From: a virus
Taxonomy: Duplodnaviria; Heunggongvirae; Uroviricota; Caudoviricetes
Direction: 5' to 3' (one strand)
DNA length: 4,037 nucleotides
Virus record (IMG/VR): IMGVR_UViG_2671180567_000004
Span: 1-4,037 of that record
How positions within the stretch are numbered: position 1 is the stretch's first letter; each line of letters begins with the position of its first letter. The notes under the pieces were generated by a model that saw only the letters and a list, made by a program, of their open reading frames with translations, was not told the origin of the DNA and made no database searches. The position numbers and the translations under genes were made by a program. This document shows, in pieces, positions 512-3,903 of this stretch.

Positions 512-1146
512 TTGTCGGTATACCTCTCTCGTTTGCTCAGTTGTTCAGGAATATGGTGCAGCAGCTCGCCGTCACCACAGTAAATGGCGGCATGATTCGG
601 CACCGATGAACCAAAACAGCACAGCAGCACATCGCCCGGTTGTGCTGATGACAACGGCACCTGATACAGCCCTGTGGCCTCCAGATTATCCAGATAGAGA
701 TTCTGACCGTGACGCCACCAGTCATCCCCGCGATGAAAATCCGGCATCTCAATCCCCGCCAGATGATAAGCATCCCGGAACAGCGTGTAACAGTCCGTCA
801 CCCCGTGCTCAAAGCGCCGCCCGGTGAGATGCGGCACACAGCGGAACTTATGAATCGCCCCCCGGCAGACCAGCCACCACGGCAAATCACTCTGCACCTG
901 CAGCCGCCGGTCGGCCTCACTCAGCCAGGGCAGACCACCGGGGTGGCTGTGGACCAGCGCCACAATCTCACCCTGCATTTCTGCCTGCAACCAGTCTTCC
1001 GGCAACATACGGAAATACGCCTCCGGCTCACCGGAGATATTCACGCAGGGGAAATATCTTTCCCCCTCCGGCGTGCTTACCACGAAGCCGCACGACTCCG
1101 CTGGCGCACATCGCCGGGCGTGCGCCAATATATTGCTATAGAGCAT
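409..1146 (-). CDS. K: tail tip assembly protein K (lambda gpK homolog); N-terminal MPN/JAMM-type domain plus C-terminal NlpC/P60-type domain
   Basis: ORF-track entry 409..1185 (258 aa) contains HSHPGGLPWLSEAD (JAMM-like H-x-H...S-x-x-D, His codon at 949..951) with an upstream glutamate, then a C-terminal Cys/His region (GVTDCYTLF, VPNHAAIY) typical of NlpC/P60 hydrolases. The protein matches my memory of lambda K. I place the start at the second in-frame ATG (1146..1144) because it is preceded by AGGAG (complement of 1152..1156) at 5-nt spacing, while the first ATG at 1185 has no Shine-Dalgarno and would put a terminator-like hairpin inside the coding sequence. Predicted 245 aa. Confidence 0.9.
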   Translation of the reverse strand: MLYSNILAHARRCAPAESCGFVVSTPEGERYFPCVNISGEPEAYFRMLPEDWLQAEMQGEIVALVHSHPGGLPWLSEADRRLQVQSDLPWWLVCRGAIHKFRCVPHLTGRRFEHGVTDCYTLFRDAYHLAGIEMPDFHRGDDWWRHGQNLYLDNLEATGLYQVPLSSAQPGDVLLCCFGSSVPNHAAIYCGDGELLHHIPEQLSKRERYTDKWQRRTHSLWRHRAWHASAFTGIYNDLAAASTFV

Positions 1147-1159
1147 GAGAACTCCTGAT

Positions 1160-1182
1160 AAAAAACCCAGCCGAAGCTGGGT
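1160..1182 (-). terminator. candidate intrinsic terminator on the minus strand between ant stop and K ribosome-binding site
   Basis: Minus-strand RNA would read ACCCAGC-UUCG-GCUGGGU (7-bp GC-rich stem, UUCG tetraloop) followed directly by UUUUUU, then the K Shine-Dalgarno AGGAG. Plus-strand coordinates: A-tract 1160..1165, stem arms 1165..1171 and 1176..1182. Confidence 0.55.
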
Positions 1183-1200
1183 CATTTCGTTGGCAATCTG

Positions 1201-2121
1201 TTAGTAGTGATGCAGTGAAGGAGGTAATTCTTTGTTCTTAAGTCTTACCCATGCAGAAAGATTCGTTGGTCCGTCTGGCTCATTAATATCAATATCTCGC
1301 GTGTGATTGATTAAAACGTCTCTCGCCATTCCGATAACATACGAGAACTCATGGCCGTAGTCGTAGCACCTGCCAGAATAGTTTGATTGAATTTGCTTTA
1401 GCGCCAGATACAGTTCGCGGAATAATGCCTGTGAGCGGTTGGCATAATCCCATAGCCATACAAGGCTGTTTGCTTCTTTTGCGGAAAGCTCGTTGGTGCT
1501 CTTCTCTTGTTTGCCGATTAACTCTCCTTCAAGCGGAACGCGAGCAGCAAGTGACAGAGCTTCGGTAAACTGCTCCTCGCTGATTTCTTTGTATGAACAC
1601 CCAAAATGAGATTTCAGTGACGACCACATGGTGATCATCGCCTTCGCCTGTTTTTCTTTTGGCAGAGACTGACCGCGACTCATGACGAGTTGTTTAATGG
1701 CTTCCTGCTGTTCAGTGGTGATTTTCCCCAGCAATGCCTTTTTAGCTTTGCGCGGGTTAATCACATGGCCTTTAGTCCAGTACTCGTAGAGCACATCGTC
1801 ACACTCTTCCTGATACTGGATTACCTTGTCGCGAATTTCAGGGCGGACTTTGTTAGGACTGATGGTTTGGAGCCAACCATTCAGTTTACGCAAAGCAAGG
1901 CAAATCATGGTCTGCATACCGCCAACTGAAGGTATTGCGATTTCCACAATACCTTTAGCAAATCTTTGTTTTAACTTTGTAAACTGTGAAGCCCAATCCA
2001 TACCCATTCCCTCAACGATAGGTTTCATTGGGGTGTACGGTTCGCCGTTGTGATTGACGACATAAAGCTCTGCGCCGTGGAATGGCACGTTGATAGTAGA
2101 TACCGCTGTTGCTATACTCAT
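1201..2121 (-). CDS. ant: phage antirepressor (Ant-like) protein, about 306 aa
   Basis: ORF-track entry 1201..2175 (324 aa from a GTG). I prefer the in-frame ATG at 2121..2119 because it is preceded by AAGGAA (complement of 2131..2136, 8-nt spacer) and the GTG at 2175 has no Shine-Dalgarno. The N-terminus MSIATAVSTINVPFHGAELYVVNHNGEPYTPMKPIVEGMGMDWASQFTKLK resembles phage antirepressor N-terminal domains (P22 Ant / Bro-N-like) from memory. Assignment is strengthened by the adjacent upstream Arc-like and divergent Mnt-like genes. Stop TAA at 1203..1201. Confidence 0.7.
   Translation of the reverse strand: MSIATAVSTINVPFHGAELYVVNHNGEPYTPMKPIVEGMGMDWASQFTKLKQRFAKGIVEIAIPSVGGMQTMICLALRKLNGWLQTISPNKVRPEIRDKVIQYQEECDDVLYEYWTKGHVINPRKAKKALLGKITTEQQEAIKQLVMSRGQSLPKEKQAKAMITMWSSLKSHFGCSYKEISEEQFTEALSLAARVPLEGELIGKQEKSTNELSAKEANSLVWLWDYANRSQALFRELYLALKQIQSNYSGRCYDYGHEFSYVIGMARDVLINHTRDIDINEPDGPTNLSAWVRLKNKELPPSLHHY
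2090..2118 (+). promoter_or_regulatory. candidate sigma70 promoter for an antisense (sar-like) RNA, inside the 5' end of ant
   Basis: Plus strand: -35 TTGATA (2090..2095), 17-bp spacer, extended -10 TGc TATACT (TG at 2110..2111, hexamer 2113..2118). Predicted start near 2125, reading antisense across the ant Shine-Dalgarno. Confidence 0.4.
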
Positions 2122-2124
2122 TTC

Positions 2125-2195
2125 GTTAGTTCCTTGGAAGTTACTGACATAGAAGCCCGATTTGTGTTCGCGCACTGTCGGGCTTCGCTATTTTT
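2125..2195 (+). ncRNA. candidate cis-antisense small RNA (sar-like, about 70 nt) complementary to the ant ribosome-binding site and arc-ant spacer
   Basis: Bounded by the candidate promoter at 2090..2118 and the plus-strand hairpin plus U-tract at 2152..2195. The transcript would contain UCCUUG, the complement of the ant Shine-Dalgarno. P22 immI is known to encode a short antisense RNA (sar) in the arc-ant spacer; this is an analogy, not a sequence match. Confidence 0.35.
2152..2195 (+). terminator. candidate unidirectional intrinsic terminator (plus strand) in the arc-ant spacer
   Basis: Inverted repeat GAAGCCCGA (2152..2160) / TCGGGCTTC (2178..2186) gives a 9-bp stem with a 17-nt loop that has an inner GTG/CAC pairing. 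On the plus strand it is followed by GCTATTTTTAT (T-run 2191..2195). On the minus strand no U-tract follows, so arc-to-ant read-through should not be stopped. Confidence 0.4.
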
Positions 2196-2361
2196 ATGTC
2201 CTAGCATTCTTCTCTCCAATCAGTCCGTACACTTTTCTCAATTGATAAATAAGTTCCGTGTTGAACTGTCGACACTCTTTTTCTCCATTTCTTTCAATCG
2301 CCTTCCTTACATCCTCTGGGAAACGAACCTTGCGTTGATACATGTCTTTTGCTTTTTCCAT
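2194..2361 (-). CDS. arc: Arc-like ribbon-helix-helix repressor, 55 aa (not in the ORF track)
   Basis: Hand translation of the minus strand from ATG 2361..2359 gives MEKAKDMYQRKVRFPEDVRKAIERNGEKECRQFNTELIYQLRKVYGLIGEKNART, stop TAA at 2196..2194. Strong Shine-Dalgarno AAGGAG with 5-nt spacer (complement of 2367..2372). The strand (KVRFPEDV), helix and N-cap (NTELIYQL) pattern closely resembles P22 Arc as I remember it (...NLRWPREV...NSEIYQRV...). It sits immediately upstream of ant on the same strand. Confidence 0.8.
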   Translation of the reverse strand: MEKAKDMYQRKVRFPEDVRKAIERNGEKECRQFNTELIYQLRKVYGLIGEKNART

Positions 2362-2399
2362 CTCCACTCCTTAAATAGCCTCACTATGGGGCAACCAAA

Positions 2400-2428
2400 A
2401 TTGTCACACCGTGCGTCATTGAAGTCAA
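2400..2428 (-). promoter_or_regulatory. candidate Pant-like sigma70 promoter driving arc-ant (minus strand)
   Basis: Minus strand reads TTGACT (complement of 2423..2428), 17-bp spacer, TGtGACAAT (extended -10; hexamer is complement of 2400..2405). Predicted start about 30 nt upstream of the arc ATG. The spacer contains CACCGTG (2407..2413). Confidence 0.45.
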
Positions 2429-2447
2429 CCCCACCGTGGGGCATAAT
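2419..2447 (+). promoter_or_regulatory. candidate Pmnt-like sigma70 promoter driving the Mnt-like gene (plus strand)
   Basis: Plus strand: -35 TTGAAG (2419..2424), 17-bp spacer, -10 CATAAT (2442..2447), about 37 bp before the ATG at 2485. Its -35 overlaps the -35 of the divergent minus-strand promoter back-to-back. The spacer contains the palindrome CCCCAC-C-GTGGGG (2429..2441). Confidence 0.5.
2429..2441. promoter_or_regulatory. candidate operator: 13-bp palindrome CCCCAC-C-GTGGGG
   Basis: Dyad symmetry (6-bp arms around a central C) between the two -35 elements and abutting the plus-strand -10. Its core CACCGTG recurs as a direct repeat at 2407..2413 inside the opposite promoter spacer. 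The size and symmetry suit a ribbon-helix-helix dimer or tetramer site. Confidence 0.45.
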
Positions 2448-2484
2448 TTACTTATTGTGAATTTTTCCTGTTTGGACTAATGGT

Positions 2485-2859
2485 ATGAGTAGAGAAGACC
2501 CTCAACTTCGGATTAGGCTTCCTGTTGAATTAAAAAAAATAATTGAAGCGTCATCAAAACAAAATAATCGTTCTATGAATGCTGAGATTGTCACTCTGCT
2601 TGAGTTGGCGATTCGTGTTTGTCGTGATTTTGGGCCGGAGGATGGTCCTATCGTTCAGCAGTTTAAAGAACAACTAGATGCGATAAACAGAAAATATGAT
2701 AAAAGCGAGCATGAAAAACTTATACCTCAACTTTTAGAAATCATAGAAAAACAGAAAAAACAAGTAGATAAACTTATTAGCATGGTTGAAAGATCAATTC
2801 CTCTTTCAGAGGAATATAAGCAGAAATATCTTGGTGATGACAACAAAAAACCCACCTGA
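2485..2859 (+). CDS. mnt: Mnt-like ribbon-helix-helix repressor with extended C-terminal helical region, 124 aa
   Basis: ORF-track entry 2485..2859. N-terminus MSREDPQLRIRLPVELKKIIEASSKQNNRSMNAEIVTLLELAI has the Arc/MetJ-type strand-helix-helix signature and resembles the P22 Mnt N-terminus as I remember it (RDDPHFNFRMP...NGRSMNSEL...). The C-terminal part (LIPQLLEIIEKQKKQVDKLISMVERS) is heptad-like and K/E-rich, consistent with an oligomerisation helix. It is divergent from arc-ant and convergent with L. Confidence 0.8.
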   Translation: MSREDPQLRIRLPVELKKIIEASSKQNNRSMNAEIVTLLELAIRVCRDFGPEDGPIVQQFKEQLDAINRKYDKSEHEKLIPQLLEIIEKQKKQVDKLISMVERSIPLSEEYKQKYLGDDNKKPT

Positions 2860-2866
2860 TGGTGGG
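2845..2866 (-). terminator. candidate intrinsic terminator on the minus strand just after the L stop codon
   Basis: Minus-strand RNA after the L stop (TAA, complement of 2876..2878) reads CCCACC-AUCA-GGUGGG followed directly by UUUUUU. Plus-strand coordinates: A-tract 2845..2850, stem arms 2851..2856 and 2861..2866. The hairpin overlaps the Mnt-like stop codon (TGA 2857..2859, in the loop). Confidence 0.5.
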
Positions 2867-2875
2867 CATAATCCA

Positions 2876-3574
2876 TTACTGCGAAAGTTTGTTAATGGAA
2901 AGGAAGCCGCCAAAGTTGCCGACGTTATTGCGAAACTTACAGCCACTCAGGCATTTGCTGCATTTATCCTTCGTGATATCGGACGTCGGCTGATCATATT
3001 CATCCGCGACTGCCGGACCGTGATAACCGCACTCATCACCGCGATAGGTCCAGGTGCAGGTGTTGGCCAGCATGATACGTCCCGGAAAAACAGCGCCGTC
3101 CGTTTCCGTCGGCGTGGACAGTACAAAAGAGGCACTCACCGCGCTCAGTTCGCTGCACTGCTCAATGCGCCAGCGGCTGATCACCTCCTGCTCCGGATCG
3201 GCGTCACTGTTTCCGTTGACGAAGTTCACCGCATCCAGAAAACGGGCGTAAACCTTACGCCGGACCACCGTTCCGCCGACCAGACTCTGCAGATCTTCCG
3301 CCATCCCGGTGACCATACCGTACAGGTTAGAAACCGTCAGCGTGGGGCGCGTACTGGTGCCTTTGCCATTCAGTTCAAAACCACTCCCCTGAATGGGATA
3401 CGGCTGATACTGTCGCCCCTGCCAGGTGACCGGCTCACCTTTTTCGTTCTGCTCATTACAGAAAAAATAACGTTCTCCACCGACCTCTGTCAGGTCGATT
3501 TCCCAGAGCACCACGCTGGCCGACTGCTCCGCACGGGTGCATTCATTCAGTGTTTCCTGCCGGATATCCTGCAT
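2876..3574 (-). CDS. L: minor tail protein L (lambda gpL homolog), 232 aa
   Basis: ORF-track protein MQDIRQETLNECTRAEQSASVVLWEIDLTEVGGERYFFCNEQNEKGEPVTWQGRQYQPYPIQ...CSKCLSGCKFRNNVGNFGGFLSINKLSQ matches lambda gpL almost along its whole length from memory. The start ATG overlaps the M stop (TGATG, 3576..3572). Four C-terminal cysteines are present. Confidence 0.95.
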   Translation of the reverse strand: MQDIRQETLNECTRAEQSASVVLWEIDLTEVGGERYFFCNEQNEKGEPVTWQGRQYQPYPIQGSGFELNGKGTSTRPTLTVSNLYGMVTGMAEDLQSLVGGTVVRRKVYARFLDAVNFVNGNSDADPEQEVISRWRIEQCSELSAVSASFVLSTPTETDGAVFPGRIMLANTCTWTYRGDECGYHGPAVADEYDQPTSDITKDKCSKCLSGCKFRNNVGNFGGFLSINKLSQ

Positions 3575-3903
3575 CAGTTCACCACCTGTTCAAACTCTGC
3601 GCTGAACTCAACACGCAGCATACTGACCCGCGACGACCATTTTGCGCAGGTCACCTTTATCTGCCGCCACTCATAAGGCGGCGTCCACAGAAAGGCTTTC
3701 CAGCCCCCGTGCTCTTCCAGAAACGACTCCAGTACCGTGGCCTCCTCACGGGGGACAGAAAGCGTCACGCTGTACGTTTTCAGGTTGGCATTCAGCCCGG
3801 CAGGCGCTCGCTGGGAATAGCCATCACCAAAGCGCACCTTTCTTACAGAAGGGGCCGAAGCCACATCCATACCGGGTTTCACTTTCCAGCGGAAGGTTTT
3901 CAT
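3574..3903 (-). CDS. M: minor tail protein M (lambda gpM homolog), 109 aa
   Basis: ORF-track protein MKTFRWKVKPGMDVASAPSVRKVRFGDGYSQRAPAGLNANLKTYSVTLSVPREEATVLESFLEEHGGWKAFLWTPPYEWRQIKVTCAKWSSRVSMLRVEFSAEFEQVVN is near-identical to lambda gpM from memory. The start overlaps the H stop (ATGA). Confidence 0.95.
   Translation of the reverse strand: MKTFRWKVKPGMDVASAPSVRKVRFGDGYSQRAPAGLNANLKTYSVTLSVPREEATVLESFLEEHGGWKAFLWTPPYEWRQIKVTCAKWSSRVSMLRVEFSAEFEQVVN

Follow-up and report, generated by a model that had tools for sequence, protein, structure and literature searches.

The window analysed in this work, viz. the whole stretch of 4,037 nucleotides, covers the tail-tip region of a lambda-like prophage, which reads on the minus strand in the order M, L, an insert, K and the start of I. 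The tail gene M (3574-3903, minus strand) is followed by the gene for the minor tail protein L (2876-3574, minus strand; Pfam Phage_tail_L, E = 4.6e-101), which ends in a stop codon at 2876-2878 and is the last late gene before the inserted cassette, and the tail gene K (JAB + NlpC/P60; 409-1146, minus strand) is the first late gene after it. The insert between L and K is about 1.7 kb in length and consists of mnt-like, arc-like, sar-like and ant components, with a GC content of 33-48% as against 53-66% for the tail genes. A sequence from E. coli CFSAN018748 shows 99.9% identity over the part of the cassette region that was searched (window 1130-2900), while Q and the Q target fall outside the window.

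The mnt-like gene (2485-2859, plus strand) encodes a ribbon-helix-helix repressor of 124 aa, which is recognised by Pfam Arc (E = 3e-07, 30.6 bits) and by its alignment with the Mnt protein of P22; this gene is convergent with L and its last four codons and stop (KKPT*) lie in the terminator sequence described below. The arc-like gene (2194-2361, minus strand) encodes a small ribbon-helix-helix protein of 55 aa, whose position matches that of P22 arc and whose Pfam Arc score of 19.2 bits falls just short of the cut-off of 20.4 bits; in RefSeq it is labelled merely as a hypothetical protein, although both its position and its size match arc. The antirepressor gene ant (1201-2121, minus strand; Pfam P22_AR_N 5e-45, P22_AR_C 5e-28) encodes a protein which over its full length is 56% identical to the Ant proteins of P22-like phages. 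Across the start of ant there is a candidate sar-like antisense RNA (2124-2196, plus strand), proposed from its fold and from a promoter-like site, TTGATA-17-TATACT with an upstream TG, which precedes it at 2090-2118 (plus strand). The region 2124-2200 folds at -28.1 kcal/mol (z = -4.3) into a two-hairpin shape close to that of P22 sar, and a search of the window for known RNA families in Rfam at E values up to 1 gave no match, either to this candidate or to the hairpin which is the main subject of this work. Known prophage sRNAs (anti-sRNAs and Pas sRNAs) were also considered, and these are placed at other prophage positions (PMC4104026; bioRxiv Pas preprint), with nothing linking them to this locus.

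As in P22-type immI, the mnt-type gene and the arc-type gene (the latter with its sub-cut-off Pfam score) diverge from a common control region, located here at 2368-2484. It contains a Pant-like site, TTGACT-17-GACAAT, running from 2428 to 2400 on the minus strand, and a Pmnt-like site, TTGAAG-17-CATAAT, at 2419-2447 on the plus strand, the -35 hexamers of these divergent promoter-like sites overlapping at 2419-2428. Three palindromic operator-like sites in 2379-2441, with the sequences CCTCACTATGGGG, CACCGTG and CCCCACCGTGGGG, have their centres at 2385, 2410 and 2435, i.e. at a regular spacing of exactly 25 bp, and are the putative operators.

The stem-loop CCCACC-TGAT-GGTGGG is located at 2851-2866, where the mnt-like gene and L converge, and its predicted action is on the minus strand. 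In plus-strand order it consists of CCCACC (2851-2856), TGAT (2857-2860) and GGTGGG (2861-2866), and in the minus-strand RNA of a 5' arm at 2866-2861 (CCCACC), a loop at 2860-2857 (AUCA) and a 3' arm at 2856-2851 (GGUGGG), so that this RNA reads AUUAUG-CCCACC-AUCA-GGUGGG-UUUUUUGUUGU. The stem has 6 perfect pairs, 5 of them GC, and a possible G.U pair, i.e. 6-7 bp, closed by a loop of 4 nt. The TGA stop codon of the mnt-like gene lies within this loop (2857-2859, plus strand). On one side of the stem is a run of six residues at 2845-2850, which is A6 on the plus strand, where it forms two Lys codons of the mnt-like gene, and T6 on the minus strand, giving a U6 tract in the RNA; on the other side a linker of 9 nt (2867-2875), containing CATAAT at 2867-2872, leads to the L stop codon. 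All of these features, viz. the hairpin, the A6 run, the in-loop mnt stop, the CATAAT, the convergent genes and a gap of 16 bp between the two reading frames, had been described in the original prediction and are confirmed from the sequence. However, it had also placed the hairpin within this gap, and while the gap is indeed 16 bp long, 9 of the 16 hairpin bases and the whole of A6 are mnt coding sequence, and therefore the element straddles the 3' end of mnt rather than being confined to the space between the genes.

The two strands differ in what follows the hairpin. On the minus strand, a GC-rich stem-loop is directly followed on its 3' side by the U-rich tract UUUUUUGUUGU, and a context of 51 nt folds at -14.2 kcal/mol. 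On the plus strand the fold has -11.8 kcal/mol, only the 6-bp hairpin itself pairs, and the hairpin is followed by CATAATCCA (RNA CAUAAUCCA), in which 2 of the 9 residues are T/U and there is no T-tract. A consensus terminator scan of the window called the site on the minus strand only, and was silent for the plus strand. A T-tract on both strands, as in a bidirectional terminator, is thus not found in the window. These results bear out what had been predicted for both strands, and the features of the element correspond to those of a one-directional intrinsic terminator of the late strand. In a stricter scan, for which the stem had to be perfect, 6 bp or longer and with no more than one non-GC pair, the loop 3-6 nt long and 6 or more of the next 7 positions T, the window gave exactly two sites (2866-2851 and 1181-1166), each of them on the minus strand, and 300 randomised windows gave none; these two sites bracket the mnt/arc/sar-like/ant insert. 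With regard to promoters at this position, a plus-strand promoter using the CATAAT at 2867-2872 lacks an acceptable upstream -35 and is not called by the promoter scan. At the very end of L there is a minus-strand promoter-like sequence, TTAACA-16-GATTAT, running from 2895 to 2868, whose -10 overlaps the complement of this CATAAT and whose start would fall inside the hairpin; as a promoter it was rejected, its match of only 9/12 being at the chance rate (6 found vs 3.6 expected).

The second strict terminator, CCCAGC-UUCG-GCUGGG-U6, is present after ant at 1160-1183 (minus strand) and is a homologue of the P22 terminator t_ant. The P22 ant terminator, GACCCAGCTTCGGCTGGGTT-T5, has the same sequence as window 1183-1164, and over the 3' end of ant and the terminator 53 of 61 bases match P22, the stem-loop and the first T's of the tail being identical. 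An AGGAG and the ATG of K directly follow this terminator, so that the ribosome-binding site and the start codon of K are supplied by the cassette: K begins with MLYSNILAHARR (window 1130-1150) in place of MTQTESAILAHARR as in HK630, and its N-terminus is MLYSNIL in place of the lambda-type MTQTESAIL. Since both the start and the ribosome-binding site of K are exchanged, the cassette is a replacement reaching into K and not a clean insertion. The two flanking terminators are identical to each other at 18 of 22 positions with one flipped base pair (window-wide p ~0.005). However, an interpretation of this likeness as a target-site or insertion duplication was set aside, as each terminator has a separate homologue in P22 (the end of mnt and t_ant, respectively) and, further, the same hairpin recurs in unrelated genomes.

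If the hairpin is part of the cassette, then it will be found where the cassette is found and be lacking where L and K directly adjoin. Among the 80 L loci in IMG/VR closest to that of the window, 76 have a lambda-type start of K, with its ATG a few nt from the L stop, and no hairpin, and the one locus with a cassette has the hairpin; a cassette-free L/K junction of the same kind is seen in HK630. This comparison with cassette-free relatives had been named beforehand as the check on the original prediction, which held, among other readings, that the motif marks the cassette boundary, and the absence of the hairpin from the 76 junctions agrees with that reading, as does the divergence of the different cassette types right past the T-tract. 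A 60-bp junction sequence is present in 452 of 5426 complete E. coli genomes, and among the 40 matches listed nearly all junctions overlap an 'Arc family' gene and L, the two exceptions among them being cassettes with an extra ClpP-like gene; every E. coli junction locus that was inspected also carries the cassette. An ant cassette is also seen at the L/K position in PhiR12_1 and in the Stx phages 2851, 1717 and YYZ-2008, in which the cassette, rather than the letters of the hairpin, was observed. Taken together, this distribution indicates that the hairpin belongs to the cassette. In the literature searched, no description of a terminator at the L/K cassette of Stx phages was found. What looks like a decayed copy is present in the IMG/VR contig 2534681939_000020, where L is truncated at about codon 94 without an L-side hairpin, and the reading frame adjoining the cut L is, by eye, transposase-like.

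From IMG/VR, 44 lambdoid loci were retrieved with L-TAA-TGGATTATG-hairpin-T5, the linker serving as the search anchor, and the linker is therefore kept in all 44 (44/44) by the way in which they were found. These loci fall into four cassette classes (A-D) with different Mnt-like proteins, Arc-like proteins and control regions/operators. All four classes share the block AAAAAACCCACCTGA[T/C]GGTGGGCATAATCCA, with the sequence diverging immediately beyond the A-tract, and three to four different or unrelated Mnt C-termini all end in KKPT*. In class D the block is non-coding and is located 27 nt beyond the stop codon of a ClpP-like gene which runs in the same direction as mnt; the in-loop TGA is then not a stop codon, and an A6 or A7 is still kept. 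The ClpP-like protease gene of this class (178 aa; Pfam CLP_protease, 1.6e-11) directly follows mnt and overlaps its stop codon, and PhiR12_1 has the gene layout of this class. Also in class D, the L-side copy of the terminator is followed by an RBS-ATG like that before K. As A6 or A7 is retained in the non-coding context of class D as well as across different Mnt C-termini, the conservation is at the nucleic-acid level and extends to the T-run, a feature of consequence for the late strand alone. This suggests that the block is kept by selection on DNA or RNA and not on protein.

A comparison with phage P22 points to the source of this block. The gene order in the P22 RefSeq record is late gene 16, then sieA, orf59a and mnt on the opposite strand, followed by arc, sar, ant, a terminator and gene 9, and at the mnt stop of P22 the late strand reads ATTAACCCGCCGTCAGGTGGTTTTTTTGT, which matches the window sequence ATTATGCCCACCATCAGGTGGGTTTTTTGT at 25 of 30 bases. 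The Mnt of P22 ends in KKTT* and that of P22-like phages in KKPT*, with the stop arranged as in the window. When 80 loci for close relatives of P22 Mnt were compared, the exact sequence AAAAAACCCACCTGA[A/C/T]GGTGGG was present in 43, with an Mnt ending in KKPT*, and 3 further loci, P22-type ones included, have degenerate versions of the hairpin. Downstream of the block, these 46 loci show at least 7 unrelated flanks, mostly T-rich on the mnt strand (e.g. TTAATTTTT). In various P22-like loci, unrelated cargo genes (encoding a 322-aa protein, a lipoprotein-like protein of 143 aa and others) converge on mnt; they end 8-17 nt from the mnt stop and share the hairpin as terminator. Over nearly all of about 95 loci from the two very different phage groups, the T-tract and the stem are intact, the unrelated flanks notwithstanding. 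Based on these likenesses, the L-side element is homologous to the P22 mnt-stop sequence and is the standard end of mnt in immI modules, where the block would usually be a two-way terminator as well as a mosaic joint. In lambdoid cassettes of this type, a 9-nt linker to L has taken the place of the T-tract on the mnt side, and as a consequence only the late-strand terminator is left; in view of the T-rich mnt strand of the P22-like relatives, the ancestral role may have been bidirectional or mainly that of mnt termination. The proposal that the motif is a recombination scar is not supported by these results, as P22-type immI modules have passed on the hairpin unaltered, together with the A6 run and the KKPT* ending.

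With regard to how generic this element is, the exact 22-mer CCCACCNTCAGGTGGGTTTTTT was searched in bacterial contigs with one genome per species, and it occurs 48 times in unrelated bacterial genomes against about 0.3 expected, an expectation which assumes equal base frequencies. The 48 copies are found in unrelated phyla and in unrelated flanks, mostly with an A-rich 5' side, and this recurrence indicates that the hairpin is a generic form of terminator. Among 14 distinct phage variants, 95% of the cells are paired, and there are 3 one-sided changes and 0 double changes; the element is nearly invariant, and due to this covariation is uninformative. Each of the three one-sided changes in the stem results in G.U in the late-strand RNA and in A.C in the mnt-strand RNA.

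Based on the evidence presented above, the element is very probably a Rho-independent terminator of the late strand, which is a built-in part of the P22-type immI module located between L and K. If this interpretation is correct, then an RNA polymerase without Q modification that reaches the end of L would transcribe the hairpin and the U6 tract and be released at 2845-2850, and such release would keep it from an antisense run through mnt and on into arc-ant, a read-through which in a lysogen would disturb Mnt synthesis and express the antirepressor. During lytic growth, the Q-modified polymerase from the late promoter presumably reads through the L-side terminator and would pass both terminators, so that K, I and J are still made; terminators within operons have been proposed to stop transcription which lacks antitermination (PMC8022706). 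Thus, while the anatomy of the element, its strand asymmetry, its linkage to the cassette, its homology to P22 and its conservation over different alleles are directly observed, termination at this site, its insulating role and the Q-dependent read-through are what we infer. Caution is called for by the short stem of 6-7 bp, by the lack of compensatory changes and by the need for an insulator, which is an assumption, since in a lysogen the upstream late genes are expected to be silent. As the last codons and the stop of mnt (KKPT*) are formed by A6, the 5' arm and the loop, the block of 22 bp would also be a fixed joint at which different mnt alleles and neighbouring genes have recombined.

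A possible but doubtful alternative is that the hairpin serves mainly the plus-strand mnt transcript, either as its terminator or as a 3' stabiliser after Rho-dependent termination, with the U6 tract a by-product of the Lys codons. Such stabilisation of the mnt mRNA may also be a secondary role of the plus-strand hairpin. The mnt transcription unit always ends with the hairpin, which on the plus strand is stable by itself, and the usually T-rich mnt strand of the P22-like phages makes it bidirectional there. However, no U-tract follows the hairpin on the plus strand in the window or in any lambdoid cassette seen, the A6 run persists in spite of unrelated Mnt C-termini and even in a non-coding position, the three one-sided stem changes preserve pairing (as G.U) on the late-strand RNA and leave A.C on the mnt-strand RNA, and the stop codon in the loop puts the terminating ribosome on the hairpin itself.

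It is improbable that the hairpin is a functionless relic in the lambdoid context, carried along as the end of mnt and as a handy patch of homology for recombination. The lack of covariation would accord with this, as a nearly invariant element could simply be young, and the element does coincide with mosaic breakpoints in both phage groups. However, a relic is hardly expected to retain its T-tract and stem in nearly all of the loci from two such different groups, to show few stem changes that mostly preserve a wobble pair, and to be kept in class D, where it is non-coding. A further proposal, to which we also assign little probability, is that the A6 run, the hairpin and the in-loop stop form a dual-use 'coding terminator' acting as a universal recombination linker, so that swaps of unrelated mnt alleles and neighbouring genes between P22-like podoviruses and lambda-like siphoviruses may always restore both the mnt frame and the late-strand terminator. 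In a weaker variant of this proposal, also improbable, the class C operator and -10 at 2429-2447 may derive from a duplication of the terminator junction, or the class C repressor may weakly bind both sites and loop across mnt.

The original prediction had further pointed out that the hairpin and the following CATAAT resemble a motif on the promoter side, and it had considered a second repressor site or chance as the source. The likeness exists, although the motif which had been placed at 2432-2447, CCACCGTGGGGCATAAT, actually spans 2431-2447. The exact word common to the hairpin and the promoter region is the 9-mer GGGCATAAT, and in comparison a 13/14 match to GGTGGGCATAATCC occurs by chance inside ant (1437-1450). 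A gapped local alignment of 2845-2880 against 2426-2452 gives a score of 13, with p ~0.004 against shuffled intergenic sequence; however, in 31 of 400 trials a shuffled query also attains at least 13 at some position of the window (p ~0.08 window-wide). When 2845-2880 is matched to the whole window, the best score, 15, is that of the other terminator, the control region is second-best with 13 and a site inside ant scores 12. For classes A, B and D, the score of the hairpin with the control region of the respective class is only 8 (p ~0.35). Chance is thus the best reading of the promoter likeness, which would be a coincidence or at most reflect shared history. It is very unlikely that the hairpin DNA is a second site for the Mnt-like or Arc-like repressor and as such related to the palindrome which lies at 2429-2441 next to the -10 of the mnt promoter, although the two sites are both GC-rich palindromes followed by CATAAT and the control region is the second-best match. 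The operator core CACYGTG occurs in the window at 2407 and 2432 only and not in the hairpin, the spacing of the CCCAC/GTGGG half-sites is 6 bp in the hairpin vs 1 bp at 2429-2441, a difference of 5 bp, the hairpin is unchanged across four classes with different operators (classes B and D using the same CACYGTG core), three of them with control regions to which it shows no likeness, and it predates the class C repressor type, being identical in P22-like phages with a P22-type Mnt.

In terms of its broader significance, the element is best described as a mosaic joint and an ordinary intrinsic terminator which came with a module of known type, and not as a new kind of element. It is mildly notable that one block of 22 bp would serve as the end of Mnt, the late-strand terminator and a recombination joint in two very different phage groups. 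This interpretation would explain how a tail operon with two terminators in its middle still works, and it indicates that the antirepressor cassettes in about 8% of complete E. coli genomes, many Shiga-toxin phages included, are P22-type immI modules with their RNA signals intact. It also provides a concrete site at which to study a possible influence of read-through from the tail genes on the expression of the antirepressor, and hence on spontaneous induction of prophages and Shiga toxin, and it is a clean case of a mosaic joint coinciding precisely with a terminator.

Among the known systems, the closest is the immI region, or 'ant moron', of P22, the term moron having been applied to the ant region, which lies inside the late operon, and late transcripts traverse it to reach the tailspike gene (PMC2629481). 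The cassette of the window shares with it the gene set and orientation, the location inside a late operon, an mnt gene convergent with the upstream late transcription, an arc-ant unit co-directional with late transcription, the Ant Pfam domains, the t_ant homologue, the sar-like fold and the hairpin with a T-run at the mnt stop. However, in P22, a podovirus, the cassette is located between gene 16 and the tailspike gene 9, whereas here it lies between the lambda-type genes L and K; sieA and orf59a are lacking in the window cassette, the Mnt-like protein of 124 aa has a different C-terminal half, the operators are unlike Oarc and Omnt of P22, and the U-rich mnt-strand tract (TTAATTTTT) of P22 has been lost. 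The element also resembles the bidirectional terminators found between convergent genes, in that a GC-rich hairpin is common to both genes with an A-tract on one side, and it is the P22-like homologues that have T-rich tracts on both sides whereas the window has a T-run on one side only. Lastly, like the lambdoid morons (Juhala et al. 2000), the cassette has its own promoters (here promoter-like sites) and flanking terminators, is located between two genes of a late operon, is lower in GC content than its neighbours and is absent from close relatives, but it differs from them in replacing also the first codons and the ribosome-binding site of K and in being bounded by a terminator both upstream and downstream.
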